Below, one piece after another: positions 11,312 through 56,800 of a stretch of DNA of 64,000 nucleotides. Within the stretch, counting starts at the first letter, position 1, and every line of letters starts with the position of its first letter. The translations under genes and the position numbers were made by a program. The notes beneath the pieces were generated by a model. It worked only from the letters and a program-made list of their open reading frames with translations, ran no database searches and was not told the origin of the DNA. Origin of the DNA: an uncultured bacterium (GTDB lineage: Bacteria; Chloroflexota; UBA5177; JANWHV01); contig CAVSOU010000008.1 in assembly GCA_963729625.1 (NCBI GenBank), forward strand, positions 970,106 through 1,034,105. The letters are read 5' to 3'.

Positions 11312-13789
11312 GTGTCGAGGGGTCAGGAGCCACGAGCACGTGTCCACGGGAAGCAACGCCGGGCCGATCCGGCGCGCGGATCCGGTCGCGACACATCGAA
11401 GCTTGCCGTGGGCGCGGATCCGATTTCCGCGCAGCATGCCCTGCCCGTGCTCCACGTGCGGACGCTCGGCGGGTTTTCGCTACTGCGTGGTGAAGAGTCG
11501 CTCATAACCGAGGCGTGGCGCGGTGATCGGCTCTGGCCGCTCTTCACCGGCCTGCTCAGTGCAAGCAACCACCGGCTCAGCCGGGACCAGGCAATCGAGC
11601 TTCTCTGGCCGGATAAGGAGCTGGCGGACCCGGCGAACAGCCTGCGCGAAGTACTGAGCAAGCTTCGTCGGCTGCTGGCCGGCGGCTCCTCGGCGCCAAC
11701 TCAGGCCTATGTGCGGAGCGACGGTGCATTCCTGGTCCTGGTGTCCGGTGCGGTGCTGATCGATGCCGATATGTTTCTTGCGGAGGCGCAAAGGGCATCG
11801 GCTACCCGGGACCTGACGGCATGCCAGACAGCGATCGATCTGTATGCCGGCGAGTACCTGCCGCAGGGGACAGTCGAACCGCTCTCCCGGCACGCCGCAC
11901 TCGTGCGCGGACGTCGGAGTGCCTTGCGCCATGCCGCGAGCGACGTGCTCGCCCTGGCCGCCGAGCTCTGCGATGGAACGGACCTACGTCGTGCCGCCGC
12001 GTATTTGCAACGTGCATTCGGGCTGAATCCCAGCGCCGAGGAGAAGGCGCGCCGGCTCATGACCACGTATGCGCGCATTGGCGAGCTCGCGGCCGCGCAG
12101 GAGGTGTTCGGCACGCTGACACGCACGCTCGCGCACCAGGGCGTGCCGCCGAGCCTGGAGACAACCCGGCTGCGCGACTCGCTGCTGGAAAAAAGCGCAC
12201 CTCGCGGCACCTTGCCCCAGGAGGGCCAGGCCCCGGCAGGCTTGCTCACCTGCCTGGTCGTGCTCGGAGACGGAGCGACTCCCGCCCCTGTGGAAGCCGT
12301 CGTAGCTGCGCACCACGGGAGCAGCGCCGATGCGGACCCCACGGATCGGTGCTGGCGCTTCAGCTTCTCCGATCCACATGAGGCCCTCGCCGCCGCCTTG
12401 ACGCTCACCTCGCCCCCGCCCTCCGCTGCCATTCCCCGTGGCATGCGCGCCGCTGTCCATACCGGGCAAACCGGATATCGGCCTGAGCACGATGCGGGCT
12501 TCGCGCTGGCCAAGATGCTTGCCGAGATTGCACACGCCGGACAGGCATTGGTGTCGCACGTGACGTATGCGGTCGCAGGCGCCTCGCTGCCGGCACACAT
12601 GGCACTGCCCAGGCTTGATTCCTATGAGCTGCCCTACAGCTCGGAGCCGGTTGCCGTCTACCAGCTCAGCAAAGCGAACTCGGTCGTCACCTACCCGCCG
12701 CTGCGAGCACGTCGTCACCGGCCGCATAATCTGCCGGCTCCGATCACGGCCTACGTGGCGCGGCCGCGACTTCAGGCAAGGCTCGGCGCGCTGATCGCTC
12801 CCGCCGCGGGACGCAGCACCCGACTGTTAACGCTGACCGGCGTGGGCGGCGGCGGCAAGACGCGCCTGGCAGTGGAGCTGGCGCGTGACCTGCTGCCGCG
12901 GTTTCCCGACGGCGTCTGGCTGGTCGAGCTCGCCTCGCTGTCCGAGCCGCGCGATGTGCCGGCACAGATCGCGCGCGTGCTCGGCCTGCGTGAGGAGCGC
13001 GGCGTTCCGATAATGGATTCCGTTGCCGCCTATCTGCGCGCCCGCGAGCAGCCCTTGCTGCTGGTGCTCGACAACTGCGAGCATCTGGTGGACGCATGCG
13101 CTCAAGCCACGGCGGTGTTGCTCCAGGCCGGCGAGCTGGTCCACGTGCTGGCCACCAGTCGCGAACGGCTGCGCATGCAAGGTGAGCGCGCCGAAGAGGT
13201 GCCGCTTCTGTCGACGCCAATCCCGCGCGACGGCGGCTTTCCGCTCGCGGATATCGGCGGGGCGGAGTCCGTCCGGCTATTCTGCACGCGCTCCACGGAA
13301 AGCGTGCCCGACTTTGCGCTGTCCGCCGCGAACGCGCAGGCTACTGCCCGCATCTGTGCACGGCTCGATGGGATCCCGCTGGCTATCGAGCTCGCGGCGG
13401 CGCAGCTTGTCCGCCTGCCCCTCACGGAGATTGTGGATGGCCTTGACCGCTCCATCGGGCTGTTGGCCGGCGGCAATACCGGCGCCTTGCCCCGGCACCA
13501 GACGCTTCACGCGGCGATCGACTGGAGCTATCGGCTGCTCAGTGCGGACGCGCAAACCTTATTCCGGAGACTCGCGGTCTTCGCCGGAGGCTGGACGGCC
13601 CCCGCCGCTCAGGAAGTGTGCGGACTGAGAGGCCTCCATCCGGACGACGTCGGGCCGCTACTGCAGGAGCTCCTCCTGGCGTCGCTCGCGATCCGCTACA
13701 AGGCCGGTGACCAGCATCGCTACCGTATGCTCGAGCCCGTGCGACAATATGCCCTGGGTCAGCTCCATGGTCAGCTCGACACCGCTTGA
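11312..13789 (+). CDS. SARP/AfsR-family regulator: wHTH-BTAD + degenerate class III cyclase-like domain + NB-ARC/STAND ATPase; C-terminally interrupted
   Basis: VRTLGGF, LSRDQAIELLWP, AIDLYAGEYL, PSLETTRL (SARP/BTAD); RAAVHTG, AHAGQALVS (cyclase fold); GVGGGGKT, LLVLDNCEHL, LDGIPLAIELAA (STAND). Start codon uncertain. Confidence 0.85.
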   Translation: MSRGQEPRARVHGKQRRADPARGSGRDTSKLAVGADPISAQHALPVLHVRTLGGFSLLRGEESLITEAWRGDRLWPLFTGLLSASNHRLSRDQAIELLWPDKELADPANSLREVLSKLRRLLAGGSSAPTQAYVRSDGAFLVLVSGAVLIDADMFLAEAQRASATRDLTACQTAIDLYAGEYLPQGTVEPLSRHAALVRGRRSALRHAASDVLALAAELCDGTDLRRAAAYLQRAFGLNPSAEEKARRLMTTYARIGELAAAQEVFGTLTRTLAHQGVPPSLETTRLRDSLLEKSAPRGTLPQEGQAPAGLLTCLVVLGDGATPAPVEAVVAAHHGSSADADPTDRCWRFSFSDPHEALAAALTLTSPPPSAAIPRGMRAAVHTGQTGYRPEHDAGFALAKMLAEIAHAGQALVSHVTYAVAGASLPAHMALPRLDSYELPYSSEPVAVYQLSKANSVVTYPPLRARRHRPHNLPAPITAYVARPRLQARLGALIAPAAGRSTRLLTLTGVGGGGKTRLAVELARDLLPRFPDGVWLVELASLSEPRDVPAQIARVLGLREERGVPIMDSVAAYLRAREQPLLLVLDNCEHLVDACAQATAVLLQAGELVHVLATSRERLRMQGERAEEVPLLSTPIPRDGGFPLADIGGAESVRLFCTRSTESVPDFALSAANAQATARICARLDGIPLAIELAAAQLVRLPLTEIVDGLDRSIGLLAGGNTGALPRHQTLHAAIDWSYRLLSADAQTLFRRLAVFAGGWTAPAAQEVCGLRGLHPDDVGPLLQELLLASLAIRYKAGDQHRYRMLEPVRQYALGQLHGQLDTA

Positions 13790-13939
13790 TGCCCACGAGT
13801 TGCATGCGCCCAGTGGCGCCTACGATCGGCTCTCCGGAAGACGCGAAGAAAGGAGCGCACGCAAGACCGGCCGTGTTCCATAGCGCGCTGGCGGCGACCA
13901 TGCGCGAGCGGGTCGCAAATGAGCAGAGGTTCGGGTGGT

Positions 13940-14085
13940 ACGGCGTGAGCAGTGAAGCGCGACAGGTGCACGTGGCGCACCGCGACTACTACCTCCGGCC
14001 CGCCGAGGAGGCCCTCGCGGCGAGGCAAAGCGAGCTGCAGGAGCAATGGCTGGCACCGCTCGCGGCAGAAGACGGCATCATGAAG
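13940..14085 (+). pseudogene. Detached remnant of the STAND regulator C-terminus
   Basis: EARQVHVAHRDYYLRPAEEA...QEQWLAPLAAEDG is the usual sequence following the STAND wHTH. It lies in another frame after about 170 bp of unrelated DNA, and no TPR tail follows. Confidence 0.6.
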
Positions 14086-14108
14086 GACGTGCCGGCCTGT
14101 GGGTTCCG

Positions 14109-14141
14109 CCTAACGCCCACCTAACGTCCCGCTGCTATAAT
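14109..14141 (+). promoter_or_regulatory. CCTAAYG direct-repeat operator + extended -10 (perfect TATAAT), copy 4
   Basis: cctaacg ccca cctaacg tcccgc tgc tataat; upstream of the kinase gene. Confidence 0.9.
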
Positions 14142-14230
14142 TGGGCTGTCTCATGGGGCATAATACCCTGTCCAGCACTCCTGCGCGAGTTTGCGACTTG
14201 CGGCCGGGCCGCGGGACTGGAGCCTGATCG

Positions 14231-16675
14231 GTGAGCCTGCCTACTGGCACCATGGTAAGCGGCTACCGCATCCTCTACGAGGCTGGGCGGGGCGGCATGG
14301 CCGTGGTCTACCGTGCTCGGCAGGAGAACCTCGGCCGCGATGTGGCTCTCAAGATGCTGTCGAGCACACTGGCCTTCGACCCTGGCTTCCTAGCCCGCTT
14401 TCATCAAGAGGCCCATTCAGTGGCCAGCCTACAGCACCCTGCCATTCTGGTCATCCATGACGTAGGGGCCTTCCAAGAGCAGCCGTACCTGGTGACCGAG
14501 TTCATCGAGGGCGGCACACTGGTGAAGTACCTTGGAACGCCGCAGCCCCTCGGAACGGTTGTCCAGCTTCTGGGTCCCATCGCCTCAGCCCTCGACCACG
14601 CCCACGCGAGGGGAATCCTGCATCGCGACGTCAAGCCCGCGAACATCCTGCTTCGCCAGGACGGCGGCCCGGTGCTGGCAGACTTTGGCCTGGCGGTGGC
14701 GGCTGAAGCCAATCGGCGCCTGACCCGTACCGGACTTACCATGGGCACACCCGAGTACATGGCGCCCGAGCAGGCGACGCAGCCCTCGAGTAGTCTCACA
14801 CCCGCCGTTGACCGCTACTCCCTTGCCGTGATCGCTTATGAACTGCTCACCGGACGAGTGCCGTTCGAAGGGCCGACGCCGGTAGCAGTGGTCATGGCGC
14901 AGGTCACCCAGGCGCCTCCCCCGCCGCGTGCCCTTAACCCTGCGCTCGCGCTCGGCTTGGATGCCGTTCTGCTCAGTGGTTTGGCCAAGGAGCCGGATCA
15001 CCGTTACCCCAGCGCCACGGCCTATATCCAGGCCCTCGTTGCGACTGCTAACGCCGATGCACCGGAGGCTATGAATGCAGCCCTCCCACCCACGGTCGCC
15101 GTCGCCGCAAACGCGATCCCTCGAGCCGCCGGTGCCATGGCGGGCCCGCCCGCGCCAGCCGGAGCTGCGATCGTCAGCGCGCTGCGGGCGCCGGGGTCGG
15201 GGCCGGCCGACCCAATCCTCATCAACTGGCAGCCGACGCAGGTGGCCGGACGGCTGCCGCGACGGCACAGGCGCGTGTACGCTCTGATGGCAGCGATTTT
15301 CGTGGCCACACTGGCCGTTGCGGTGGCTGGTGTGTTCGCCTGGCACGGCGGCATTCGCCTGGCCGGCAACACACCTGCGTCGGTAACGCGAAGTGCGAGA
15401 CCGCCCACATCCACTGGCCAGACGACGCGGATCGCAATCGTAGTTCCGGCTGGGTCCGGTACGGCCAGCCCTGGGCCGACGGATGTTCCCACCGCGTCCG
15501 CGAGGCCCTTGCCATCGACAACTCTTCTGGCACAGCCATTGTGGGTGGCGGCATTGTCCCCGGGTGAGATCACGACTGTCGCAGGCAACAGCCGAACGCG
15601 AATCGACAGCAACGGTGTCGATGTGGGTACGTACACGGGCAATGGTGGCCTCGCCAAGGATGCCGGTTTTTCTCGCCCGTTCAGCGTGGCCGTTGACGCC
15701 CTGGGTAATCTCATTGTCGCTGACACTTTCAACAATCGCATTCGGAAGATCGCGTTGGACTCGGGCATCGTCACTAACATCGCCGACAATGGCGACTACC
15801 ATTTCAGTGGTGACGGCGGGCTAGCTATAGATGCGGGGATAAGTCCCAACGACGTAGCACTCGATCAGTTAGGAAACCTGTATATCGCAGACGCCGCCAA
15901 TCATCGTGTGCGGAAGGTGAGCGCAAGCACCGGCATCGTCACTACCGTTGCCGGTACGGGCACGTACGGCGACAGCGGTGACGGGGGCCTAGCCACGCAG
16001 GCGGAGATCAGCTTTCCCAATTACGTGGCTTTCGACAATGAAGGGAACATCTACTTCGTTGATTTCGGTGCGGAGCGCGTGCGGAAGATAGACGTGAATA
16101 CCGGCTACATCTCCACGGTTGCCGGCGACGGCGTTGTTCGGAAGGATACCTACGGAATCTGGATCGGCAGCTACAGCGGCGACGGCGGCCCGGCCTAGGA
16201 GGCGGGACTCAATCGCCCAAGCGGTGTGGCTGTTGACCAAGCAGGGAATATCTATATCGCGGATCGCGACAACAATCGCATCCGTATGGTCCAGGCAGCA
16301 ACGGGGGCTATTTCGACGGTAGCTGGCACCGGGGTCGCAGGCTTCAGTGGCGACGGTGGCCCGGCGGCGGCAGCCGAACTGTCGCAGCCAAGCTGTGTGA
16401 TACTCGACACGCGCGGCGATCTCTACATATCGGACACAGGTAATCAGCGGGTCCGCATGGTGGATGCAGCAACCGGCGCAATCACGACGATCGCCGGTGC
16501 CAGGCCGATCGACAGTAGTGGCGACGGCGGATATGGCGGCGATTATGGTGCCGCCACCGACGCGCAGTTGAATCAACCTCTCGGCCTTGCGATGGATCGG
16601 ATGGGGAATCTCTACATAGCAGACAGTCTCAACAACCGAGTGCGCGTGGTGCGCGGAGTAGCGTCGGCCAACTGA
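14231..16675 (+). CDS. Transmembrane Hanks-type Ser/Thr kinase with extracellular NHL repeats; in-frame TAG at 16196-16198
   Basis: GRGGMAVVY, VALK, HRDVKPANIL, DFG, GTPEYMAPE; TM helix; NHL repeats continue in the same frame after the TAG into ORF 16226..16675. Confidence 0.9.
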
Positions 16676-16867
16676 CTTTGTTCAGCCCCGGCAAGTGCCC
16701 GCGAAGCTATCGGCCGGGCGGCGCGACCGCCTGTGTCCGCGGATCGGATCGGCGAACGGTGCTGTAAGCGGCCAACTCGCGGGGCCGGCTAGGGCAGGTG
16801 GCTTGATAGTAAATATGGCCGCATCAGTAGTTACCGTGGTTGGCCCCGTGGCCCGGTCCGGCTCACT

Positions 16868-19315
16868 ATGACCGGCCCAATCCTCTGCCCCCAGTGCGGC
16901 ACGCCGGTTGCTGCCGCGTCTTGCTTCTGCGGCTCGTGCGGCTGCCGCATTGCAAGGCCAGCCGCGTCGACAGCGGGTTTTCACCGCGCCCTCTCGCCCA
17001 TCGATGTGCCGCAGCTCGTGGTGAGACAACCGGGCAAACAAGAGGTTGCATTTCCGCTCGTCAGCCAAAGCATGCGGCTCGGGCGGGCGGACGATTGCGA
17101 TATCCGCGTTGCCTCCCCGGGCGTCTCGCGCCTACACGCACTTATCTTCCAGCGGCAGGGCCAGTACGTACTCGTGGATCAGGGCAGCGTGAACGGCATC
17201 TACGTGGGCGGCGCGCGCGTCAAGGAGGCCGTGCTCCACCAGGGCGACCGGGTGCGTATCCCCGATCCGGTAGGTGATGCGATTGTGTTGACGTTCGAGG
17301 CGCCCGTGCCCCCAGGTGCGTTGGCAGTCGCGGCCAGCGGCCCACTCGGGTTTGATCTCGATCCCGCCAGGCCGCGGTTCACTATCGGCCGCGATCCCGG
17401 TAGCGACTTGGTCATTGACCAGCCGTTGGTGTCACGCCGCCACGCACGGTTCGAGCGGGAAGGCCTGCAGCTCACGCTATACGATCTTGGCAGCACCAAC
17501 GGCACCTACGTGAACGGCAATTGCATCCCTGGCCACGCACAGATCGCGCCGGGCGACGAAATCCGGATCGGGCCGGCGTCGTTCATCTTCGACGGCCGGC
17601 GCCTCGTGCCGTCCACCCAGCAGCAGGGCGTGCGCCTGGACGCACTCAATCTCGTGCGCCGTGTCGGGACAAACCACTCGGATGTAATCCTGAACAACGT
17701 GTCCCTCAGCATCCTGCCACGGGAGTTCGTAGCCCTCATCGGGGGCAGCGGCGCGGGGAAAACCACGCTCATGTACGCACTCTCCGGCGCCCATCCTGCC
17801 CAGCAAGGTACGATGCTGTATAACGGCCAGGACTTCTACCGCCAGCCGGGTCCCTACAGCGGCGCCATAGGATACGTCCCGCAAGATGACATTCTGCACC
17901 GCGATCTCCCGGTGGAACGGGCCCTCGAGTTCGCGGCGGAGCTACGTTTGCCCCACGATACGACACGCGCCGAACGCGAGCGGCGTGTCACAGACGTCTT
18001 GCGCGACGTAGAAATGGAGGCGCACCGGTATAAGCGCATTTGCGAGCTGAGCGGTGGCCAGCGCAAGCGCGTAAGCATCGCGCTCGAGCTACTGGCCAAT
18101 CCAAAGGTGCTGTTCCTGGATGAGCCGACCTCGGGTCTGGACCCTGGGCTGGACAAGGCGATCATGACACAGCTCCAGCTCCTGAGCGATCGAGGGCGCA
18201 CAGTGGTCCTGGTAACCCACGCGACCGAGAACATCCAGATGTGCGATCTGGTAGCGATCATGGCCGGCGGCCGGCTGGTGTACTACGGTCCGCCCGCCGA
18301 TGCGCCAGCCTTCTTCGGGGTAGGAACCTACCCCGACGCGTACCGGTACTGCGCACAGCACGCCAGCTCAATCGCGGCTATCGAGGCTGCATTCAGCCAG
18401 TCGAAGTACTTCAGGATGTACGTCGAGGACCGGTTGAAGCAACGGCGGCCGGGGCCGGTTCATGCAGCGGGAGCGCTGCCAGGAAGGGCAAGCCAGAAAC
18501 GTGCTGGTGGCCTGCGCCAGTGGAAGATTCTCGGTCGCCGCTACAGCGAGATTCTCCTGCGTGACCGACTAAATCTGGCGCTTCTGCTCGGGCAGGCTCC
18601 GGTAATTGGCGTGCTCCTGCTGCTGGTCGCCGACGGCGATAGCTTTACCCTGGACAACGTCGGCTCGTCCCAGCAGATCCTGCTCATGCTTACGCTGGCG
18701 GCGATATGGTTTGGCACGATCAACGCAGCGCGCGAGATCGTCAAGGAGCGCCCGATTTACCAGCGCGAGCGCATGGTGAACCTGCGCCTCTGGCCGTACA
18801 TCCTCTCCAAGTTCGGCATACTCGCCGTGCTCTCGCTGGTCCAGTCGCTCGTTCTGCTGGCACTGGTGGCGCTCAAGGCCAGCCACATCCTGGACACCAG
18901 CATTCTGCTGCCGGCATTCCCCGAGATATGGCTCACGCTGCTGCTGACGTCGATGGCAGGTCTCGCCTCCGGCTTGCTGATCTCGAGTCTGGTCACATCC
19001 GCGGACAGGGCGATGAGTCTGATCCCGGTCGTGCTGCTGGCCCAGGCTATCTTCTGTGGTGGGATCTTTGCGCTGCATGGCGCCATCACCTGCGTGTCGT
19101 ACCTTTTCTTCAGCCGCTGGTGCCTAGCCGCACTCGGGTCCACCGTGCACATGAACGACTTGGTTCGCGCGCCGTTGCCCGACTGGCCGAAGGAAATGTA
19201 TGCCTCACCCGACTCCATACACCTTATTGCCTACTGGCTCGTGCTCACCGGGTTCATAGTGGTATTTCTGATGGGAACGCGAGTGTCATTGCGCCGGCAG
19301 GACGCGAGGGGCTAA
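16868..19315 (+). CDS. Zinc-ribbon-FHA-FHA-ABC exporter (Rv1747-like architecture), copy 1
   Basis: Two FHA domains (GR...VSRxHA...SxNG), GGSGAGKT, LSGGQRKR, LFLDEPT, ABC-2-type TM domain. Confidence 0.92.
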   Translation: MTGPILCPQCGTPVAAASCFCGSCGCRIARPAASTAGFHRALSPIDVPQLVVRQPGKQEVAFPLVSQSMRLGRADDCDIRVASPGVSRLHALIFQRQGQYVLVDQGSVNGIYVGGARVKEAVLHQGDRVRIPDPVGDAIVLTFEAPVPPGALAVAASGPLGFDLDPARPRFTIGRDPGSDLVIDQPLVSRRHARFEREGLQLTLYDLGSTNGTYVNGNCIPGHAQIAPGDEIRIGPASFIFDGRRLVPSTQQQGVRLDALNLVRRVGTNHSDVILNNVSLSILPREFVALIGGSGAGKTTLMYALSGAHPAQQGTMLYNGQDFYRQPGPYSGAIGYVPQDDILHRDLPVERALEFAAELRLPHDTTRAERERRVTDVLRDVEMEAHRYKRICELSGGQRKRVSIALELLANPKVLFLDEPTSGLDPGLDKAIMTQLQLLSDRGRTVVLVTHATENIQMCDLVAIMAGGRLVYYGPPADAPAFFGVGTYPDAYRYCAQHASSIAAIEAAFSQSKYFRMYVEDRLKQRRPGPVHAAGALPGRASQKRAGGLRQWKILGRRYSEILLRDRLNLALLLGQAPVIGVLLLLVADGDSFTLDNVGSSQQILLMLTLAAIWFGTINAAREIVKERPIYQRERMVNLRLWPYILSKFGILAVLSLVQSLVLLALVALKASHILDTSILLPAFPEIWLTLLLTSMAGLASGLLISSLVTSADRAMSLIPVVLLAQAIFCGGIFALHGAITCVSYLFFSRWCLAALGSTVHMNDLVRAPLPDWPKEMYASPDSIHLIAYWLVLTGFIVVFLMGTRVSLRRQDARG

Positions 19316-19817
19316 CGCGGAGTGCCACGAAACCTAGTAGAGCTGGTGCGACCGGCACTGATCACGATCACCGGTAGAAGGGACGCTCGTCATCGATGGC
19401 GCGCCCGCCATTCGCGTAACGGAGGTTGCCCACCAGGGAACCCGTGATTTATCCCCGAAGCGATAGCGATGTTGATAGCCGCCCAAGGGTGCACCAGCGA
19501 GTGTGACACTGCGGAATTGACGTTGAGCCAGTTCTCGCCGATATCAATACCAGCGCGATGTGCGATATGATGCGGCTTGGGCGCCGGAGTTAGCGAGCCG
19601 CGCACGACCTCCACGCGGACACAATCGGGTGATCGGCGCAGGTGGAGCGATGGACCGCTCTCAGGTTCGCGAGGCGGTCACGCGCAACGCGCCATAGCTG
19701 GCCGTCGATATCCGTGGCCGGAAGTGTGGCGCCTGGCCATGGCGGAAGACGCGCCCGGTGCGTTCGGTACCGGTGTCTGTGGCCTCCCAATGCGGTCGCG
19801 TTCACACCAAAATCCGT

Positions 19818-20387: not shown

Positions 20388-20451
20388 CGGGTAGTCTGCT
20401 CCTCACAGAAAGTGAGACAGGTGTAGAGATCTGTGGACATGTCGTCCACAA

Positions 20452-23793: not shown

Positions 23794-23826
23794 AGCATAG
23801 CAGTCGGGCATTAGGCCGGCATTAGG
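23794..23826 (-). promoter_or_regulatory. CCTAAYG direct-repeat operator + extended -10, copy 5
   Basis: Minus strand: cctaatg ccgg cctaatg cccgac tgc tatgct. Confidence 0.85.
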
Positions 23827-23964: not shown

Positions 23965-23997
23965 CCTAATGGTCGCCTAATGCCACGCTGCTATACT
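23965..23997 (+). promoter_or_regulatory. CCTAAYG direct-repeat operator + extended -10, copy 6
   Basis: cctaatg gtcg cctaatg ccacgc tgc tatact; divergent from copy 5. Confidence 0.88.
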
Positions 23998-27161: not shown

Positions 27162-27194
27162 CCTAACGCTCACCTAATGCGCGGGTGCTAGGAT
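27162..27194 (+). promoter_or_regulatory. CCTAAYG direct-repeat operator + extended -10, copy 7
   Basis: cctaacg ctca cctaatg cgcggg tgc taggat. Confidence 0.85.
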
Positions 27195-31545: not shown

Positions 31546-32511
31546 GTGGCGCCGCCAGCCCTCGACTGCCATTGCGGCCATCCGCCTAATGCCCGCCTAA
31601 TGCTCGGGTGCTATACTCGGCCCGTCACGCTGAAATGCACGAGCTTGCCAGGCCTGGTTCGGCCGCGCCGCGACTCGCCGGCCGGTGATCGACGGGCAAA
31701 TGGAGAGGGTCGGAATCCATGGCAGAAGGAAGCAGAATCAAGAATTCGCAGCGGTAGTGGACGCCAGCACGGCCCGGAAGCAGACGGACCGATCCCGTCG
31801 GTCTTCTCCATTCTCCTTGCGACACTCGCACTCGTGCTGGCAACAAGCACCGCCGGCTGCTCGATCGGAGGGGGCGGCTCCAACGGCGCCGCCGCCACGC
31901 CGACACCGCGACCGCCGACTCCCCGGCCGGCCCCCACGCGCGTCGTGGTGGCCCAGCCGGCTGTCTGGAAGGTCATTGCGCCACCCGGTCCCGGGCAGCT
32001 CCCGGTGGCGCCGCCGAAAGGCAGCTATCCGTTTGCACGAAGCTTCGGCGGCCTGCTCGTCTACGTGCCCGGCACCCTGGCGCCGGTGCCCGCCTCGTGG
32101 CAGACGTACAGCAACGTCATGCGCGGCGTCAACATGTCGTACCCGCCGCGCTGGATCCAGCAGGGGGTTGCCGGCGCGGACGGCGCGCTCTTCCTCCCGC
32201 CGCCAACGACACAATCGCGTTCACAGCCGGGCGGACCACCGGCCATCGGAGTCCTGTGGTCGGCCGGCGCGGCCGGCGCGCGCAAGGCCGTCCCGCTTCC
32301 GGCGCTTGGCGACGGCATGGTGCTTGATGGCGGCATCATCAGCGCCGGGAAGGTCAGCGGCCACCTCTACACCATCGGCGGCACACCCGGCGTGGCAGCG
32401 AGGGTCGAGGTGCCCGCGAAGGGCGGCATGGTCACGCTGTTTGTTCGCGCCGACGATCCGGCCATGCTCGACGTGTTTCGCCAGATGCTTTCTTCCTTGC
32501 GGGTGGGGTGA
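31546..32511 (+). CDS. Probable lipoprotein with PsbP-like C-terminal domain (true start unresolved, downstream of 31617)
   Basis: Hydrophobic stretch + TAGC lipobox; WQTYSN..RGVNMSYPPRW. The ORF-track start lies upstream of promoter copy 8, so it is probably wrong. Confidence 0.6.
   Translation: MAPPALDCHCGHPPNARLMLGCYTRPVTLKCTSLPGLVRPRRDSPAGDRRANGEGRNPWQKEAESRIRSGSGRQHGPEADGPIPSVFSILLATLALVLATSTAGCSIGGGGSNGAAATPTPRPPTPRPAPTRVVVAQPAVWKVIAPPGPGQLPVAPPKGSYPFARSFGGLLVYVPGTLAPVPASWQTYSNVMRGVNMSYPPRWIQQGVAGADGALFLPPPTTQSRSQPGGPPAIGVLWSAGAAGARKAVPLPALGDGMVLDGGIISAGKVSGHLYTIGGTPGVAARVEVPAKGGMVTLFVRADDPAMLDVFRQMLSSLRVG
31585..31617 (+). promoter_or_regulatory. CCTAAYG direct-repeat operator + extended -10, copy 8
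   Basis: cctaatg cccg cctaatg ctcggg tgc tatact. Confidence 0.88.
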
Positions 32512-45500: not shown

Positions 45501-45552
45501 CAACGAGTACCGCGCGACCCCCGCACCGGAAGATACTCTCGCACCTCTTCAT
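42542..45552 (-). pseudogene. Large secreted NHL-repeat (teneurin-like) protein, frameshift near 42800
   Basis: Signal peptide, helical N-terminal domain, many GDGGPATQAEL..P.GVAVD.AGNLYIAD repeats. The last repeat continues in ORF 42542..42799 after one missing base. Confidence 0.85.
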
Positions 45553-45749: not shown

Positions 45750-45782
45750 AGCCTAGCACAACGGCATTAGGCCGGCATTAGG
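45750..45782 (-). promoter_or_regulatory. CCTAAYG direct-repeat operator + extended -10, copy 9
   Basis: Minus strand: cctaatg ccgg cctaatg ccgttg tgc taggct. Confidence 0.85.
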
Positions 45783-46293: not shown

Positions 46294-46326
46294 CCTAATG
46301 GCCGGCTAATGGTCGGCTGCTATGGT
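46294..46326 (+). promoter_or_regulatory. CCTAAYG direct-repeat operator + extended -10, copy 10
   Basis: cctaatg gccg gctaatg gtcggc tgc tatggt (one mismatch in the second repeat). Confidence 0.8.
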
Positions 46327-48236: not shown

Positions 48237-48263
48237 CTAGATGGAAGGTAATAGGAGGATGAT

Positions 48264-49976: not shown

Positions 49977-50157
49977 CGTCGCGCGTCAATGCCCGCCAGT
50001 AAGAAAGCATTCGTGTACCGAAACCCATGCTGCTTGCACCGGGCCGAGTCGCCTTCCAGCGTGCATGCGGTAGCGAACCGTGTGTACTCCCACGCCCAGA
50101 GTAGCTCTTGCAGGCCCGAAATATCCGGACAGTCCGACATGCTAAGGAGCGTGGCCA

Positions 50158-50190
50158 CCTAATGCCCGCCTAATGGCAGCATGCTATGCT
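50158..50190 (+). promoter_or_regulatory. CCTAAYG direct-repeat operator + extended -10, copy 11
   Basis: cctaatg cccg cctaatg gcagca tgc tatgct. Confidence 0.88.
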
Positions 50191-50215
50191 GCGCTGGCGG
50201 AAGGCGAGTGGTGCC

Positions 50216-52867
50216 ATGAATGACGACCGAAGACCTGTTTCCTGCCCGCGGTGCGGCAGGCAGCGCGCCTCGCACGACAAGTTCTGCGGCGGATGCGGTC
50301 GCCTCTTTGACGAGCCGCCGGCGGACCAACCGACAGAGGTCGGTGCGGTCGCGACGGTCGGCGGGGACGGCGCTCTGCCTTTGAGCCCAACCCTGCGTGT
50401 ACCGCCTTCCGCCTCAACCACGCCGAGACGTACGATGGTCGAGCAATGCGCGTCCGACGCCGATGGCAGTCCGGGTCCGGGACTGGACCGCCGGCAGGGG
50501 CTTGCAGCGGTTGAGTCCTGCCGCACTTCCGCCGCGGTCCGCGCGGGCGGCTATGTCCTCGTCATCTCACAGCCGGGCAAGCCGGAGATGGCCACGACGT
50601 TGGGGGCGAGCAGGCTCACGATTGGCCGAAGCAGCACTTGCGACATCGTGATCGACGCACCCGGCGTATCGCGCCTGCACGCCGACGTGAAACAGGGTCA
50701 GGGCGGCTACGTGCTGCGCGACCAAGGCAGTGCGAATGGCCTGGTGGTTGAAGGGGCCAGTGTCAAAGAGGTGGTGTTGCGCGAGGGTCAACCGGTACGC
50801 ATCCCCGATCCGTACGGCAACCTGATCACGCTTTCGCTGCACGTCCAGAGCACCGTGTCCGCATCGGATACAGGGCTTGCCGCCGCCGAAACGCGCTGGC
50901 ACACGCTGCCTCTGACCGCGCCTGGAGCGTCGCTCTCGATCGGGCGCGACGCGATAAACGACGTGCGGCTCGACCAGCCGCTCGTCTCGCGCCGGCATGC
51001 GCGCGTGGAACGCACGGACGATGGCCTTGTGGTCCGCGATCTGGGCAGCACCAACAGCACCTTCGTGAACGGCGCACGTGTCCAGGGCGCCATTACCATC
51101 GCTGATGGCGACGAGCTGCGCGTCGGTTCGACCCGGTTTCTGGTGGAGGGCGCCGCGCTGCGCCAGTGTATCGAGAGCCAACGCGTGCGCATCGACGGCG
51201 TGAACCTAATCCGCAGAGTCGGGCGCGGCGGCGCCAAAGTCATTCTCGATTCTGCGTCGCTCTCGATTCTGCCCGGCGAGTTCGTCGCTCTGGTTGGCGG
51301 CAGCGGAGCCGGCAAGACCACGCTGCTGCGGGCCCTCTGTGCCGTGGAGCGCGCACAGACGGGCCTTGTCCTGTTCAACGGTCTCGATTTCTACAGGAAT
51401 CCGGGACCGTACCGCGACATGATCGGCTATGTCCCGCAGGACGACATCCTCCATCGGGAGCTGACCGTCGACCGTGCGCTTCACTACGCCGCGCTGTTGC
51501 GCCTGCCCCCGGACACGTCGAGTGAGGAACGCGCCAAGCACATCGAGGAGGCGCTCGCCGAGGTGAAGATGGCGGCCCAGCGCCATCAGCCCATCAGCAA
51601 GCTCTCCGGCGGTCAGCGCAAGCGCGTGAGCATTGCCGTGGAGCTGCTGGCCAATCCCGGCGTGATCTTCCTCGACGAGCCCACGTCCGGCCTGGATCCC
51701 GGGCTCGACAAGACAGTGATGGCGCTACTGCAGCTTCTCTGCGACCGTGGGCGAACGATCGTGCTGGTCACTCACGCCACCGAGAACATCTGTATGTGCT
51801 CGCACGTGGCATTCATGGCACGGGGCGGCCGGCTCGTGTATTTCGGACCGCCCGGCGAGGCGCCTGCCTCTTTCGGCGTTCCCTCCTTCCCGGACATCTA
51901 CACGCTGTGCGAACAGCAGCCGGAGGAGATCACTGCGCTTGAGGAACGGTATCGCCAATCGCCTCACTACCAGCGCTTTGTGCTCGACAGGCGGCACGAG
52001 GCAGCAGCGCTGACCGCGACGGCCAGCGCCACCGCGAGCATTCGCCGGCTTTCCGTGACGGCGGGCGCTCGCCAGTGGTGGATTCTCACATGCCGCTACG
52101 CGGAGCTGTTGGGCCGGGACCGGCTCAATCTTGCCATACTGCTGGCGCAAGCCCCGGTCGTCGCCCTGCTACTTATTATGGTCGCCTCCAGCAACGCCTA
52201 TACGGTGGCCGATGTGCCGGGGACGCAGCAGATTCTGCTGATGCTGACGCTGGCCGCCGTCTGGTTTGGCACGATCAATGCGTCGCGCGAAATCGTCAAG
52301 GAGCGCCCTATCTACCAGCGCGAACGGATGGCCTCGGTCGGCATCGTGCCGTATGTCCTTTCGAAGTTTTCCGTGCTTGCGCTGCTCTCGGTGCTGCAAT
52401 CGATCGTGCTGCTGGTGATGGTCTCCTTCAAGACCGCGCATCTGCCCGCACAGGGCATGCTGCTGCCCGGCGGTGCCGAGATCGGGATAGCCCTCATTCT
52501 CACCTCACTGGCCGGATTGACCGGCGGCCTGCTTCTCAGCAGTTTGGTGAGCACGGCGGACCGAGCGATGAGCATCGTGCCGATCGTCCTGCTCGCCCAG
52601 GTGGTGTTTTCTGGCGCTGCCTTCGAGCTCCAGGGCGCAAGCAGCCTGCTGGCGCGTCTGTTTCCTAGCCGCTGGAGCATGAGTATACTGGGACAAACGG
52701 TCGGCCTGAACGCACTGGGCGTTGCGGCACGGGTGCCAGACTTTCCAAAGCTGCTCTACGGCGGTGGCTCGGCGGCACACGTCCTGGAAAAATGGCTGGT
52801 GCTGGCAGCCTTTAGCGTGCTGTTTCTGGTGGCGACTTACTGGTCCTTGCGACGCCGTGACATGTGA
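50216..52867 (+). CDS. Zinc-ribbon-FHA-FHA-ABC exporter (Rv1747-like architecture), copy 2
   Basis: Same architecture and motifs as 16868..19315. Start moved to ATG 50216 because 50186 lies in the -10 box. Confidence 0.92.
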   Translation: MNDDRRPVSCPRCGRQRASHDKFCGGCGRLFDEPPADQPTEVGAVATVGGDGALPLSPTLRVPPSASTTPRRTMVEQCASDADGSPGPGLDRRQGLAAVESCRTSAAVRAGGYVLVISQPGKPEMATTLGASRLTIGRSSTCDIVIDAPGVSRLHADVKQGQGGYVLRDQGSANGLVVEGASVKEVVLREGQPVRIPDPYGNLITLSLHVQSTVSASDTGLAAAETRWHTLPLTAPGASLSIGRDAINDVRLDQPLVSRRHARVERTDDGLVVRDLGSTNSTFVNGARVQGAITIADGDELRVGSTRFLVEGAALRQCIESQRVRIDGVNLIRRVGRGGAKVILDSASLSILPGEFVALVGGSGAGKTTLLRALCAVERAQTGLVLFNGLDFYRNPGPYRDMIGYVPQDDILHRELTVDRALHYAALLRLPPDTSSEERAKHIEEALAEVKMAAQRHQPISKLSGGQRKRVSIAVELLANPGVIFLDEPTSGLDPGLDKTVMALLQLLCDRGRTIVLVTHATENICMCSHVAFMARGGRLVYFGPPGEAPASFGVPSFPDIYTLCEQQPEEITALEERYRQSPHYQRFVLDRRHEAAALTATASATASIRRLSVTAGARQWWILTCRYAELLGRDRLNLAILLAQAPVVALLLIMVASSNAYTVADVPGTQQILLMLTLAAVWFGTINASREIVKERPIYQRERMASVGIVPYVLSKFSVLALLSVLQSIVLLVMVSFKTAHLPAQGMLLPGGAEIGIALILTSLAGLTGGLLLSSLVSTADRAMSIVPIVLLAQVVFSGAAFELQGASSLLARLFPSRWSMSILGQTVGLNALGVAARVPDFPKLLYGGGSAAHVLEKWLVLAAFSVLFLVATYWSLRRRDM

Positions 52868-52908
52868 GCAGGATCCGGGCTGTGGAGCACCGGTGAGGGA
52901 GGAACGAG

Positions 52909-53545
52909 ATGGATGTGATCTGGCTGCTCGTCTATTGGCTTGTCCTGCTGACCGCGATCTACGTGGCGTACTCGGCAGTGCGCGAAGCCGAGCAATCGCT
53001 GCTACGTCGGCCGCTCTCGGTCCTGCTGACGCTCGCCGCGGTGGCGGCTGGGACCGGCTTGCTGATCGGCGCATTCAACCTCGTCACGAATAACTACGTG
53101 GCGGGGAACTCGAGCTACCTCAACTACTATTCCAACGGGGCCCTGGCCCGAAGTGATCTCCGTGCTGCTGGCACTGGGGTCGGGATGGCTCATCAGGCGC
53201 GACGTGCTGGTCCGTGTCGGTCAGGGCCTGTGTCCCCGGTGCGGCACGCCGCTGCTCGGCCATAGCGCGTGTCCGAGTTGCGGCTGGGGCTCGCTTCCCT
53301 TGTTCAGTGCGCTGGTCGCGATGGTTCGTCGGACCATCCAGACGCCAGGGGTGTCCTCGGCTCCTGCTCCAACCGTACGTGCGCTGCCACCTGTGACGCC
53401 AACCGCCGGCGCCGTTGCAGCGGCAGGCGGCGCGAGCCCGGCGGCTTCGCCGGCCGCTTTCTGTATCATGTGCGGCAGTCCAGTACCGCCGGGCCAGACG
53501 TTCTGCGGTAGTTGCGGCACACCCGTGCAGAGCGAAGGCTCGTAA
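52909..53545 (+). pseudogene. Membrane protein with zinc ribbons, frameshift near 53147
   Basis: GGAGG RBS; TM helices in ORF 52909..53265 continue as EVISVLLALG...CPRC...CIMC in ORF 53153..53545. Confidence 0.7.
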
Positions 53546-53557: not shown

Positions 53558-55153
53558 ATGCCGGCCTGTGCTCATTGCGGAAGCACCAACCCGCCCGGCG
53601 CGCGGTTCTGCGGACAATGCAGTGGCGCGCTTACCGGCGCGACGGCCGTGGCCCATACGTGTGCAGACTGCGGCGGCAGCATAGCCGACGACGGTCTGAG
53701 CTGTCCACGGTGTGCCCGGCATGTTCAGACCGGCGTGGCCGCTCCCGCCGGGGATGAGGCGCTGCGCAGCGGCACCGTGCTTGCCGGGCGCTATACCGTC
53801 GTCCGCGCGCTGGGTCGTGGCGGTATGGGCACCGTCTATGAGGTCACCGATGGTCGCCTGGGGGGCAAGCGGTGGGCCCTAAAGCTCATGACCAGCGCGG
53901 CGCTCGACGCGGCAAGCCGTGCATCCGCGCTCGAGGCGTTCACCCGTGAGGCGACGCTTCTCGCCGGACTCTCCCACCCGAACCTGCCGTCCGTCGTGGA
54001 TTTCTTCAGCGAGAACAGCCGCCACTGCCTGGTCATGGAGTACGTTGAAGGCCAGACTCTGGAGGCTATCATCCGGCAGGCGCGAGAGCCGCTCGCCGAG
54101 AGCCGTGTCGTGATTTGGGCTGCGCAGGTCTCTGCCGTGCTGAGCTACCTGCACGCCTGGAAGCCGCCCATTATCTTTCGCGATCTCAAGCCGTCAAACG
54201 TCATTCTGCTGGATGGCGAACGCATCAAGCTCATCGATTTTGGCATTGCCCGCCACTTCAAGCAGGGGAAACAGCACGACACGGCGGTCCTGGGTACTCA
54301 TGGCTTTGCGGCGCCGGAAAGCTATGGCCAGGGACAGAGCGACGCGCGGTCGGACGTGTATAGCTTGGGCGCCACGTTGTATTACCTTCTGACCGGTGAT
54401 GACCCCTCGGGCCATCCGTTCGTCTTTGCTCCGCTGCGCAGAGAGAGACCGGCGCTCTCAGCTGGCATCGCCGCGCTCGTCAGCTGTGCCGTTCACATCA
54501 ATCCGACCGAGCGCTTCCAGTCCTCCGACGCTCTGCGCAAGGCTCTCAGCCTGGTCTCGCCGCCTAGCGCAGCAGTCGTCAGCCTGGCCGGTGGGTCGGC
54601 TAGTCCCTCCGAGAGCACGGACGCGCCAGTCGACAGTGCCCCGCCCACGCGAGAACGCAGCAAGACCGGCCAGCCGGGGGGCACCCGGCAAAACGTCGAG
54701 GAGCAGCCGCGCGTGACTCCGCTTCCGCCCCGGGAGGCGCAATCCGTGGTCGAGGCGCGAAGTATGCCGCCTGAGGTGGCGAGATCGGGTTTGCGGTGTC
54801 CGCGCTGTGCTGCGCCTCTACCCCCACGCGCACTCTTTTGCGGTGCCTGTGGCCAGCCGCTGAGTGGCAGCCTGGTTGCGGGGCCAAGCCGGCCGACCGT
54901 CGTCCTGTGCACGCGGTGCCGGCTTCCCCTGGCGGCAGGAGCAAGGTTTTGCGGCAAATGCGGTATGCCGGCGCCCGAGGAGCAAGGACGAGGCGGTCAA
55001 CTGCCCGTTCCGGACGCTGCGACTGGGTGGCCGGTCGATACCGGTGGCCGGGTGCAGTCGGACTCCTCTGCTCGGCCCTGTCCGCGCTGCGGCCGTGCCA
55101 ACCCATCTGGCCGCCGGCACTGTTCAGGCTGCGGGGCAGTTCTCCCCTGCTAG
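53558..55153 (+). CDS. Soluble Hanks-type Ser/Thr kinase flanked by zinc ribbons
   Basis: GRGGMGTVY, WALK, FRDLKPSN, DFG, GFAAPE; two N-terminal and three C-terminal CxxC ribbons; no TM. Confidence 0.92.
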   Translation: MPACAHCGSTNPPGARFCGQCSGALTGATAVAHTCADCGGSIADDGLSCPRCARHVQTGVAAPAGDEALRSGTVLAGRYTVVRALGRGGMGTVYEVTDGRLGGKRWALKLMTSAALDAASRASALEAFTREATLLAGLSHPNLPSVVDFFSENSRHCLVMEYVEGQTLEAIIRQAREPLAESRVVIWAAQVSAVLSYLHAWKPPIIFRDLKPSNVILLDGERIKLIDFGIARHFKQGKQHDTAVLGTHGFAAPESYGQGQSDARSDVYSLGATLYYLLTGDDPSGHPFVFAPLRRERPALSAGIAALVSCAVHINPTERFQSSDALRKALSLVSPPSAAVVSLAGGSASPSESTDAPVDSAPPTRERSKTGQPGGTRQNVEEQPRVTPLPPREAQSVVEARSMPPEVARSGLRCPRCAAPLPPRALFCGACGQPLSGSLVAGPSRPTVVLCTRCRLPLAAGARFCGKCGMPAPEEQGRGGQLPVPDAATGWPVDTGGRVQSDSSARPCPRCGRANPSGRRHCSGCGAVLPC

Positions 55154-55375
55154 ATCAAGCGCGGCAGTCAGTGGCGCCATGTAACGGGAGGCGGCCCGTG
55201 CGCCGCCAACCCGTCAGCAGCGCTGTCGCTCGTGGTCAGGTAGTGGCAATAGGGCATTGTAATCAACCTTTTGGGGCAAAGACAGGGCCGGTTGGCCATT
55301 GCACACGGGGAAGAAATCCTCTATTCGTGTACGTGATACCGCGAATTCTTGTGCGTCCATTGAGAGAGATCGCCA

Positions 55376-56800
55376 TTGCCGGCTAGCTTGCGGGTTGTCA
55401 GGCCTCATGCAGGCGCGCGTCAGGAACCTGCTGGTCCAGGTGCCGTCGACCTTGTGTTGCCGCCCACATTCCGCACTCCCGTCATTCACGCGATGCCCGT
55501 GCCGTTGCCGGCATTGAAGGCATGCACGCTGGGCCGGTTCCAGGTGTGGCGAGGCGGCGAGCCTCTTCCAGCCAGCCTTTGGCATGAGACCCAGGTCGTC
55601 GCTCTGTTCAAGTATCTGCTCTGCGAGCCAGGGTTCCGGGCAAGCAGAGATCAGTTGATCGACGTATTCTGGCCGCAGGCCTCGCTTGCGCAGGCAAGGA
55701 ATCGCCTAGCCTACACGCTCTCCCGCTTGCGCACTCTGCTCCACGGCGGTAGCTCGCATGGACAGTTCTACGTCGTCGGGACCGACTGGCTGCAGCTCAC
55801 GACGGATGGCGATACCAGGAACATCCTCGGTGATTGGGTGGACTGGGTGGCCTTCGAGCATGCAGCGCGTGGCGCGCTGCAGACGCGTGACGCCGAGCAG
55901 TGCCGAGCCGCTCTCGATCTGTATGGTGGCTTGCTGCTGCCTGAGGATGTGTACGCCGACTGGGCTTATGGACGCCGCTCGGAGCTTGAGACCCTCCGGC
56001 TCTCTCTCCTTCTGCACCTTGCAGATATCAGTTTTGAAGACGCCCCTGCCGAGGCGGAGCGTTGTCTTCGCGACGCGTTGGCTGCGGACCCGGCAGCCGA
56101 CGGCGCGGGGCGTACACTTATGCGGCAGCTAGCCAGCCGGGGCATGGAGAAAGCAGCACTCGACATCTATAGGAATGTGGAGTTGGCCTTGGCGATTGAA
56201 GGGCTGACGCCTTCAGAGGAGACCAGGGCTTTACATCGGCAGATTCTCGGACAGATGACCATTCCCGGCACACAACAGAACACGACCGGCATTCGCATGG
56301 TGATGGCGGTGGAGTACGGCCCGAATCCCGATCTGGCGCATGCGGTATGGGAAGCTGTCGCCGCGCACGGCGGCGCCAGACTGCCCGCGCCGGCCGGCGC
56401 GGGCGTGTTGCTCGCGTCGATGGGTACACCCGCTGAATGTATCGACGCGGCCTGCGACGTTCTTCGTGTCATGTCGGCAGGTGGCAATGGCTTGGTTCCG
56501 CGTCTGGCTCTGCACGCGGCCGATCTGGACCACGATCCCGGTGCTGCCGGCTATGCGGCCGTTCTTTCTCACTGGGGCGCTTCGGGACAGATCTTGCTTT
56601 CACAAACTGCCTGGGCCCTGAGTCGAACCGTGACGCTGGCCGACACGAAGCTTCGCGTGCTCGGCAGCTACGTTATCGACCCGCGCTTGGGACCGGAGAT
56701 CGTCGCTCAGGTCATGCGCGCGGGCTTCCCCCAACGATTTCCGCCATTGCCCGCGAACCCAAGGCCGATGCGTGGCCGACAACGAGGAGACGAAGTCTAG
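55376..56800 (+). CDS. SARP-family regulator: wHTH-BTAD + degenerate cyclase-like domain
   Basis: TLGRFQV, ASRDQLIDVFWP, ALDLYGGLLLPEDVYADWA, PSEETRAL, GQILLSQT; the start may be 55493. Confidence 0.85.
   Translation: MPASLRVVRPHAGARQEPAGPGAVDLVLPPTFRTPVIHAMPVPLPALKACTLGRFQVWRGGEPLPASLWHETQVVALFKYLLCEPGFRASRDQLIDVFWPQASLAQARNRLAYTLSRLRTLLHGGSSHGQFYVVGTDWLQLTTDGDTRNILGDWVDWVAFEHAARGALQTRDAEQCRAALDLYGGLLLPEDVYADWAYGRRSELETLRLSLLLHLADISFEDAPAEAERCLRDALAADPAADGAGRTLMRQLASRGMEKAALDIYRNVELALAIEGLTPSEETRALHRQILGQMTIPGTQQNTTGIRMVMAVEYGPNPDLAHAVWEAVAAHGGARLPAPAGAGVLLASMGTPAECIDAACDVLRVMSAGGNGLVPRLALHAADLDHDPGAAGYAAVLSHWGASGQILLSQTAWALSRTVTLADTKLRVLGSYVIDPRLGPEIVAQVMRAGFPQRFPPLPANPRPMRGRQRGDEV

Follow-up and report, generated by a model that had tools for sequence, protein, structure and literature searches.

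Which protein controls which in a bacterial locus where two SARP-family regulators, two Ser/Thr kinases and two exporters with forkhead-associated (FHA) domains are encoded within 46 kb of each other? The question is raised by a stretch of 64,000 nucleotides, hereafter the window, from an uncultured Chloroflexota bacterium (C8:970,106–1,034,105), which lies at the end of the 1.03-Mb contig C8 in an assembly of 5.4 Mb with 87% completeness and 5% contamination. SARPs have been studied almost solely as switches of actinomycete antibiotic gene clusters. A preliminary description of the window, made from its letters, proposed two parallel circuits in which a kinase senses a surface signal and switches on both an exporter and a SARP. 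Our results point in the other direction, from the SARPs to the kinases and exporters. As a whole, the surrounding island is best explained as one SARP regulon that includes the kinase/exporter units, a reading we hold with moderate confidence. The genes in question are as follows (window positions).

SARP-A, 11312..13789, plus strand: 825 aa; BTAD and AAA_22/STAND domains (Pfam)
Kinase A, 14231..16198, plus strand: 655 aa; Pkinase domain, one transmembrane helix (residues 351–369), NHL repeats
Remaining NHL blades of kinase A, 16226..16675, plus strand: same frame as kinase A, past its TAG
ABC-A, 16868..19315, plus strand: 815 aa; zinc ribbon, FHA, FHA, ABC_tran, ABC2_membrane
ABC-B, 50216..52867, plus strand: 883 aa; zinc ribbon, FHA, FHA, ABC nucleotide-binding domain, ABC-2 membrane domain
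Membrane zinc-ribbon gene, 52909..53545, plus strand: frameshift-split into 52909–53265 (two transmembrane helices, good ribosome-binding site) and 53153–53545
Kinase B, 53558..55153, plus strand: soluble Ser/Thr kinase without a transmembrane helix; zinc ribbons at both N- and C-terminus, five in all
SARP-B, 55376/55454..56800, plus strand: BTAD protein; the gene call from 55454 gives 448 aa

Pfam searches bore out the domains that the preliminary description had assigned to a module A (SARP-STAND at 11312, transmembrane kinase-NHL at 14231, with the helix found, and FHA-ABC at 16868) and a module B (FHA-ABC at 50216, soluble kinase at 53558, SARP with BTAD at 55376). Its start codon for ABC-B at 50216 is also retained, since the alternative ATG at 50186 falls inside a −10 box. 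Its membrane zinc-ribbon protein stands in part: the open reading frame (ORF) at 53153–53545 on the plus strand does encode a zinc ribbon, but the membrane portion belongs to it only if the ORF is joined to 52909–53265 across a frameshift. Judging from the reading frames, the two are probably a single membrane zinc-ribbon gene with a frameshift near 53150. Modules A and B differ in gene order and are not simple duplicates of each other.

A probable SARP-box promoter module

Both kinase/exporter units lie behind the same CCTAAYG promoter, as the preliminary description had noticed; copy 4 (at 14109) precedes kinase A and copy 11 (at 50158) precedes ABC-B.

Copy 4, 14109..14141, plus strand: CCTAACG-ccca-CCTAACG-N6-TGC-TATAAT; 89 nt 5' of kinase A
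Copy 11, 50158..50190, plus strand: 25 nt 5' of the ABC-B ATG

The promoter is a fixed 33-nt module, CCTAAYG-N4-CCTAATG-N6-TGC-TAnnnT, in which the −35 position is taken by two heptamers set 11 bp apart and an extended −10 (TGC-TAnnnT) starts 6 nt past the second heptamer. Single CCTAAYG heptamers occur 23 times in the window, compared with 6.9 ± 2.5 in shuffled sequence, and ten heptamer-N4-heptamer pairs are each followed 6 nt on by TGC-TAnnnT. Genome-wide, 22 copies of the full module were detected (18 exact, three with one mismatch, one with two and none with three), while a reversed-pattern control gave no match at two or fewer mismatches. All but one of the copies, 21 in number, fall within C8:926,890–1,020,263, an island of ~95 kb that probably extends further; the last is on contig C13, and the window's share is 11. 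Almost every transcription unit from 1847 to 56800 starts with a module copy.

In an alignment of the 22 copies the spacing is constant and without indels; information content is ~2 bits at each position of the heptamers, of the TG and of the TA...T, and ~0 bits in the flanks. Unconserved flanks together with fixed spacing indicate that the copies are kept by function and not as repeats of one another. A mobile repeat was ruled out because the flanks are unconserved. A promoter for an extracytoplasmic function (ECF) sigma factor was also ruled out, the upstream elements being identical direct repeats and the −10 a housekeeping-type extended −10. No −35-type sigma-70 promoter was found in a promoter scan of 11000–20500.

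The arrangement resembles that of known SARP operators. Passages of a study of AfsR (PMC10936776) describe SARP targets as direct repeats of 11-bp or 22-bp period with the 3' repeat 8 bp from the −10, and the afs box as a 22-bp site centered at −29.5 that overlaps the −35, where two SARP protomers bind side by side and touch sigma region 4. The boxes of PimR, in sections of PMC5930380, consist of two heptamers with 4-nt spacers. All 22 candidate promoters have the SARP-type layout of heptamer direct repeats with an 11-bp period and ~8 bp to the −10 (as set out in part of PMC10936776). Between the second heptamer and TAnnnT lie 9 nt, a distance that shrinks to 8 nt when the heptamer frame is shifted one base further, and the 22-bp unit is centered near −28.5, assuming that the hexamer spans −12 to −7. 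We consider it very probable that the module is a SARP box and that these promoters are SARP-dependent. With the promoter read as a SARP box, it follows that the SARPs most likely transcribe the kinases and exporters, which is the reverse of a kinase acting on a SARP.

The two regulators of the island

SARP-A and SARP-B are the only BTAD proteins encoded in the island, out of 11 BTAD matches genome-wide, and its sole OmpR-type winged-helix proteins. No OmpR-type (Trans_reg_C) response regulator is encoded there, the closest lying at C8:741,346, although the genome has nine strong Trans_reg_C response-regulator matches. Both SARPs combine an OmpR-type winged helix with a BTA domain, the layout that defines the SARP family; they are 31% identical over 437 aa, from the winged helix through the domain that follows BTAD. 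The Pfam Trans_reg_C matches in the two are weak (E 0.036 and 0.01).

In SARP-A, the SARP domain (a weak winged-helix match plus BTAD at E 2.8e-9; E 1e-67 with a SARP hidden Markov model, HMM, built in this analysis) is followed by a cyclase-homology-like region at ~327–478 and a STAND ATPase with the Walker A motif GGGGKT. AAA_22/NB-ARC matches at residues 482–619, and there is no GerE match. Residues 327–478 align with residues 62–214 of a LuxR-family LAL regulator, P0163 (34% identity, E 3e-15), a stretch that overlaps the Pfam Guanylate_cyc domain of P0163 at residues 27–157. Pfam made no Guanylate_cyc call on SARP-A itself, and a sequence comparison of SARP-A with the PDB gave no meaningful match. 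SARP-A thus has the SARP domain, guanylate-cyclase-like region and LAL-type ATPase, without a LuxR helix-turn-helix, of the SARP-LAL regulators, and by its predicted domains it is a PimR-like SARP-LAL. The STAND half of SARP-A has 15 paralogue matches in its own genome, 34 in one congener (G001) and 21–23 in two others (G003 and G004).

SARP-B has the SARP domain (winged helix and BTA) and a C-terminal domain homologous to the cyclase-like domain of SARP-A, with no ATPase. A phmmer comparison with the AfsR SARP domain (8hvr_I) gave E 2.7e-6 over residues 7–265, covering both sub-domains. In an AlphaFold2 model the predicted confidence (pLDDT) exceeds 90 for residues 20–270 and falls below 50 for residues 280–448, so that the C-terminal domain is not confidently folded. 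The six best Foldseek matches of SARP-B in the PDB are AfsR in initiation complexes (8k60, 8hvr; TM-score 0.73–0.76) and EmbR. An Atlas lead for SARP-B indicates the same cyclase-homology/LAL family.

In EmbR, a C-terminal FHA domain docks on the kinase. No FHA domain was detected in SARP-A or SARP-B even at E up to 5, and the EmbR-type docking route to a kinase is therefore absent; the locus does not have the make-up of an EmbR/PknH-type relay, with its FHA domain on the SARP docking the kinase.

An extended −10-like sequence, TGCTACACT, lies at 11267–11275, 37 nt 5' of the SARP-A ORF and without heptamer repeats ahead of it. It is a possible SARP-independent promoter of SARP-A.

Kinases paired with FHA-ABC exporters

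ABC-A and ABC-B are 55% identical over 769 aa and both open with a zinc ribbon. Each carries two FHA stretches (E 8.5e-40 and 4e-36), ABC_tran, ABC2_membrane and at least six hydrophobic segments, and each thereby has the make-up of an Rv1747-type exporter, a single polypeptide in which two FHA domains at the N-terminus are joined to an ABC nucleotide-binding domain and an ABC-2 membrane domain. Kinases A and B share 31% identity in the catalytic domain alone, which is generic relatedness. The catalytic Lys, (H/F)RD and DFG are kept in both kinases, and all four FHA domains of the two exporters keep GR, SxxH and N(G/S), these motifs being taken as commonly defined. Retention of both sets of motifs makes exporter gating of the PknF/Rv1747 kind plausible (as described in parts of PMC3138270, PMC3908365 and PMC8339232). 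In Rv1747-type exporters the Thr residues that accept phosphate from the kinase lie in the linker between the FHA domains; in ABC-B this linker contains several Thr and Ser. The ABC nucleotide-binding domain is closest to ABCA/ABCG exporters, which are lipid exporters, and the expected substrate, by this resemblance, would be of lipid or glycolipid type rather than the propeller proteins of the island.

Kinase A lies 670 nt 5' of ABC-A (from its TAG at 16196–16198 to 16868), and kinase B 690 nt 3' of ABC-B. The extracellular part of kinase A is an NHL propeller, and the in-frame TAG at 16196–16198 interrupts one of its repeats (…GDGGPA-stop-EAGLNRPSGVAVD…); the codon is a nonsense mutation, an assembly error or a site of readthrough. 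In module B, no terminator-like site was found in the gaps 52868–52908 or 55154–55453 by a scan whose yield was itself not above shuffles (8 sites compared with 5.1 ± 2.5, and 4 compared with 4.2 ± 2.3, in shuffled sequence), and SARP-B could be co-transcribed with ABC-B and kinase B. No PP2C phosphatase is encoded in the island, the closest being at C8:909,172.

The genome has 23 Pkinase matches and four FHA-ABC genes, three intact and one degenerate. From such genome counts, our own arithmetic puts the chance that one ABC has a kinase no more than 3 kb away and also a SARP no more than 6 kb away at ~6e-4. Among relatives, 401 genomes sampled from the phylum included 90 with a full-length FHA-ABC homologue (a tally that takes in the unpublished genome G271). 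Approximately 20 kb was examined around each of 47 FHA-ABCs from 47 genomes, 11 of these loci being shortened by contig ends. Six-frame ORFs were scanned with a kinase HMM made from 20 of the 23 kinase matches of the own genome and a SARP HMM made from alignment A1. Applied to the window as a control, the scan recovered the two kinases, two SARPs and two ABCs, and Pfam agreed for kinases on the first seven loci. Expected counts were derived from gene densities in the own genome.

A kinase was present within ~9 kb of the FHA-ABC at 25 of the 47 loci (one of them, L050, a weak partial match), where ~4 were expected. SARPs were found at the same distance at two loci (L023 and L056) where ~1.9 were expected, which is about chance, and SARP and kinase together at a single one. 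The preliminary description had proposed that SARP, kinase and FHA-ABC form a circuit, to be given up if the trio was not conserved as a neighborhood in relatives. This is what the counts show, and the trio does not hold. The pairing of kinase and exporter does, in parallel with PknF and Rv1747 (as reported in part of PMC3138270): a kinase gene adjacent to an Rv1747-type exporter is a conserved feature of the relatives. We consider the kinase and the FHA-ABC probably to be a functional pair.

Additional forms of the exporter were encountered in this survey. The third intact FHA-ABC paralogue of the own genome (52% identity; C12:24437–26821, L024:13346–17227) is fused at its C-terminus to two PLD-like domains in a 1293-aa protein, with no SARP box, kinase or SARP nearby. 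C13:1–4963 (L001) is a 94.4%-identical duplicate of window 48231–53204, comprising the BNR gene, the promoter and the FHA-ABC. The duplicate retains the promoter, but its ABC gene is disrupted by in-frame TGA stops and changes of frame; a decaying paralogue and a strain variant within the bin are both possible explanations. An FHA-ABC with a C-terminal HlyD-like domain (1303 aa) was seen at L022 (G034), and at L019 and L020 (G007, G008) an N-terminal cyclic nucleotide-binding (cNMP) domain replaces the first FHA.

The module in other organisms

Public scans for the module gave nine single matches on genome contigs and 33 loci on metagenome contigs; several of the former look like low-GC chance matches, as do many of the latter. 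A SARP ORF is present in the available flanks of 11 of the 42 public motif loci, representing ~7 distinct sequences that include Acidobacteriota and Chloroflexi metagenome-assembled genomes (MAGs). The single motif matches in an Acidobacteriota MAG, a Chloroflexi MAG and an unclassified MAG directly adjoin SARP ORFs. One metagenome contig encodes a SARP-A orthologue (50% identity over 814 aa) with the module on each side. At L088 and L074/L076, SARPs with a SARP-B-like recognition helix are divergent from the module.

One set of the metagenome contigs represents a diverged relative of the island, and several of the public loci match its operons. L093 has a SARP-A-like gene, an MFS gene (67.5% identity) and then the module, as at C8:928,123–929,556. 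At L106 a zinc-ribbon ORF and a C70-SH3-Vgb_lyase gene, with 42% and 52.7% identity to 31546–35079, follow the module, as at copy 8 of the window, and FHA-ABC (55% identity) and zinc-ribbon genes lie close by, ahead of the module. The module stands before a DUF3160 gene at L080, before an orthologue of 21965–23041 at L077, and before a kinase-PD40 propeller gene at L094 and L095.

Weighing the regulon against its alternatives

Several observations weigh against a SARP regulon with embedded kinase/exporter units. The module was found in none of 40 sampled relatives, four of the same genus among them, and the 20 nearest relatives yielded no full-length SARP-A orthologue; on account of these two absences the island is taken to be accessory. 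Conservation of the module rests on short metagenome contigs from unnamed organisms. Two types of recognition helix accompany the one box: SARP-A and its orthologues have NSLREVLSKLR, whereas SARP-B, L074 and L088 have RLxYTLxxLR. The gap between heptamer and hexamer is 9 nt as we frame it, compared with 8 in the literature, a value that framing one base later restores, and the transcription start sites of the modules are assumed positions. Within the units, the linker that joins the two FHA domains of ABC-A (FEAPVPP...DPARP) contains Ser and lacks Thr, and the in-frame stop in kinase A and the frameshift in the zinc-ribbon gene may reflect either a decaying module or assembly errors. Finally, OmpR/PhoB response regulators likewise use 11-bp direct repeats at the −35.

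The last point leads to a reading in which the repeats are bound by a non-SARP regulator, for example an OmpR/PhoB-type response regulator encoded elsewhere, and the SARP genes are passengers. PhoB-type boxes share the 7+4 periodicity at the −35, and candidates exist in the nine strong Trans_reg_C response regulators of the genome. However, none of the nine is in or near the island, all copies of the module but the one on C13 are confined to the island that encodes the two SARPs, and SARP ORFs adjoin the motif in ~7 distinct public sequences from several phyla. We regard this reading as very unlikely. Somewhat less remote, although still improbable, is that self-contained PknF/Rv1747-like units landed in the island, with their proximity to SARPs devoid of regulatory meaning and their kinases acting on unrelated targets. 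Most relatives do have the pair without a SARP, the C12 paralogue fused to PLD domains has neither kinase nor SARP nearby, and gene order is unlike between modules A and B. Yet both units start at the island-specific promoter, the broken C13 copy retains that promoter, the FHA-ABC orthologue of L106 sits amid module-driven operons, and the module heads a kinase gene at L094/L095.

A third alternative is the closed loop proposed in the preliminary description: a surface signal activates a kinase, the kinase phosphorylates both exporter and SARP, and the regulon is switched on by the phosphorylated SARP in positive feedback. AfsK phosphorylates AfsR and is encoded two genes from it, and SARP-A keeps the Walker A GKT whose equivalent Thr is the AfsR phosphosite (according to parts of PMC10936776). 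Kinase and SARP genes are neighbors twice in the window, SARP-B follows kinase B with no predicted terminator between them, and the module precedes a kinase in another lineage as well (L094/L095). Against this, phosphorylation of AfsR hardly affected activation, as passages of the same source report. A SARP near the FHA-ABC is about as frequent in relatives as chance allows (2 of 47 loci, SARP plus kinase at 1 of 47), and no kinase accompanies the metagenome SARP-A orthologue in the available part of its contig. In addition, the SARPs lack the FHA domain of EmbR and both have putative sensor or switch domains of their own (cyclase-like, STAND). We consider the closed loop doubtful, and the same grade is given to its central step, kinase action on the SARPs, a speculative step drawn from analogy.

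The SARP regulon with embedded kinase/exporter units, which we prefer, starts from direct observations: which domains the proteins have, a promoter family that is confined to the island, and the recurrence of that family in other organisms next to SARP genes and orthologous operons. We propose that one or both SARPs would bind the boxes and switch on the whole island. If AfsR at the afsS promoter is a guide, the repeats would be occupied by two adjacent SARP protomers, and these would bring in the RNA polymerase holoenzyme (sigma adaptation). The kinase of each unit would probably phosphorylate Thr residues read by the FHA domains of the exporter, as PknF does for Rv1747, and this reading would gate export of a lipid or glycolipid-like substrate and not of the propeller proteins. 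Were SARP-B, which is placed 3' in the ABC-B/kinase-B unit, co-transcribed from copy 11, it would boost its own expression.

An extension of this scheme would make the locus a self-contained, patchily distributed, non-actinomycete SARP island. Two SARP paralogues that differ in their recognition helices would share the heptamers of one box or form a master-amplifier hierarchy driving ~22 surface-propeller operons. Both the SARP-LAL switch and the FHA-gated exporters would receive feedback from receptor kinases of the island, so that one extracellular cue sets both transcription and export. We rate this fuller version as unlikely.

Other transcription units and gene content

The remaining module copies of the window head genes mostly for other kinds of protein.

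Copy 1, 3379..3411, minus strand: heads 1847–3295 and then a DUF3160 gene, a pairing of module and DUF3160 that recurs at L080
Copy 2, 3754..3786, plus strand: CGC instead of TGC; heads 3848–5407
Copy 3, 11186..11218, minus strand: heads 10287–11144 (minus strand); divergent from SARP-A
Copy 5, 23794..23826, minus strand: heads a zinc-ribbon membrane protein, then 21965–23041 and a BNR protein, 20778–21905
Copy 6, 23965..23997, plus strand: heads 24111–25880, then a GH3 gene, 25881–27059
Copy 7, 27162..27194, plus strand: heads 27278–29158 and 29387–31213
Copy 8, 31585..31617, plus strand: heads an ORF ending at 32511, a C70-SH3-Vgb_lyase propeller gene, 32515–35079, and a BNR gene, 35110–37107
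Copy 9, 45750..45782, minus strand: heads NHL propeller genes 42649–45552, 40854–42032, 39377–40684 and 38730–39281, and a zinc-ribbon gene, 37816–38733
Copy 10, 46294..46326, plus strand: one mismatch; parted from a BNR gene, 48264–49976, by an insertion sequence (IS) transposase gene, 46745–48097 (minus strand)

Many outputs of the module are beta-propeller proteins (NHL, BNR/Ycf48-like, Kelch, PD40 and Vgb-lyase-like) with a signal peptide or a transmembrane anchor. Others include an alpha-2-macroglobulin/PBP1C pair, a GH3 enzyme, a cysteine-peptidase-SH3-propeller protein and the two kinase/exporter units. The alpha-2-macroglobulin gene (1906 aa) and the gene for a PBP1C-type penicillin-binding protein (844 aa) form an operon at C8:941241–949716, with the module at C8:949,716. 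The transposase at 46745–48097 (minus strand) is of the DDE_Tnp_1_4 type, and the copy 10 region looks like an IS insertion that uncoupled a regulon promoter from its BNR-propeller gene.

N-terminal cytoplasmic zinc ribbons recur on unrelated proteins of the island (5909–7420, 22960–23871, 37816–38733, and the genes starting at 16868, 50216 and 53558), their carriers being propeller proteins, both ABC exporters and kinase B. Past the last SARP box, 58472–63711 contains long ORFs of 893 aa and 850 aa that overlap on opposite strands and have no Pfam match, and GLUG-motif proteins are encoded at 61134–63711 on the minus strand.

Significance and comparison with known systems

A literature search combining SARP with Chloroflexi or Chloroflexota, at the level of titles and abstracts, found no paper on such a regulon. 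If the SARP regulon is real, it would carry the sigma-adaptation mechanism known from AfsR over to a large regulon that is not biosynthetic and provide a natural example of the transcriptional embedding of PknF/Rv1747-like units. It would also offer a compact system for experiments, with one 33-bp module, two regulators and two kinase/exporter pairs. Should the self-contained island with kinase feedback prove true as well, no earlier SARP regulon, and no earlier link of SARP, eukaryotic-type Ser/Thr kinase (eSTK) and FHA-ABC, would be known outside secondary metabolism and Actinomycetota.

The closest parallel is AfsR of Streptomyces coelicolor at the afs box of the afsS promoter (8hvr, 8k60). 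Both systems have the SARP fold of winged helix and BTA, a large SARP with a STAND ATPase, a Ser/Thr kinase gene nearby, and a 22-bp site of two 11-bp direct repeats that overlaps the −35 just 5' of the −10 (as described in part of PMC10936776). In contrast to AfsR, the host is not an actinomycete, 22 promoters lie in one island instead of one or few, and the targets are envelope and secreted proteins with signaling/export units rather than antibiotic biosynthesis. The −10 here is a good extended −10, SARP-A has no TPR domain, and identity to AfsR is just 27–28%.

PimR, the SARP-LAL type of Streptomyces natalensis, shares the SARP domain, guanylate-cyclase-like region and LAL-type ATPase without a LuxR helix-turn-helix, as well as operator heptamers with 4-nt spacers. 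In the passages of PMC5930380 that describe it, the PimR heptamer is CGGCAAG, the operator does not overlap the −35 and a single gene is the target; here the heptamer is CCTAAYG at the −35 position with 22 targets, and SARP-B has the cyclase-like part only.

For PknF/Rv1747 of Mycobacterium tuberculosis the likeness drawn here is one of architecture: the exporter has a pair of FHA domains at its N-terminus and an ABC-2 membrane domain, and a Ser/Thr kinase gene lies beside it (parts of PMC3138270 and PMC3908365). The ABCs of the window differ in their extra N-terminal zinc ribbon, in a unit that starts at a SARP-box promoter and, for ABC-A, in an inter-FHA linker without Thr; kinase A has an NHL propeller ectodomain, and kinase B is soluble with five zinc ribbons. 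PknH/EmbR of M. tuberculosis (2fez, 2ff4) resembles the locus in having a SARP-fold regulator in a region that also encodes a Ser/Thr kinase, but SARP-A and SARP-B have no FHA domain and the FHA domains here are on the exporter. SARP, SARP-LAL and eSTK/FHA-ABC are thus known kinds, and what is new is the scale of 22 promoters, the non-actinomycete host, and the envelope-island cargo with its signaling/export units.

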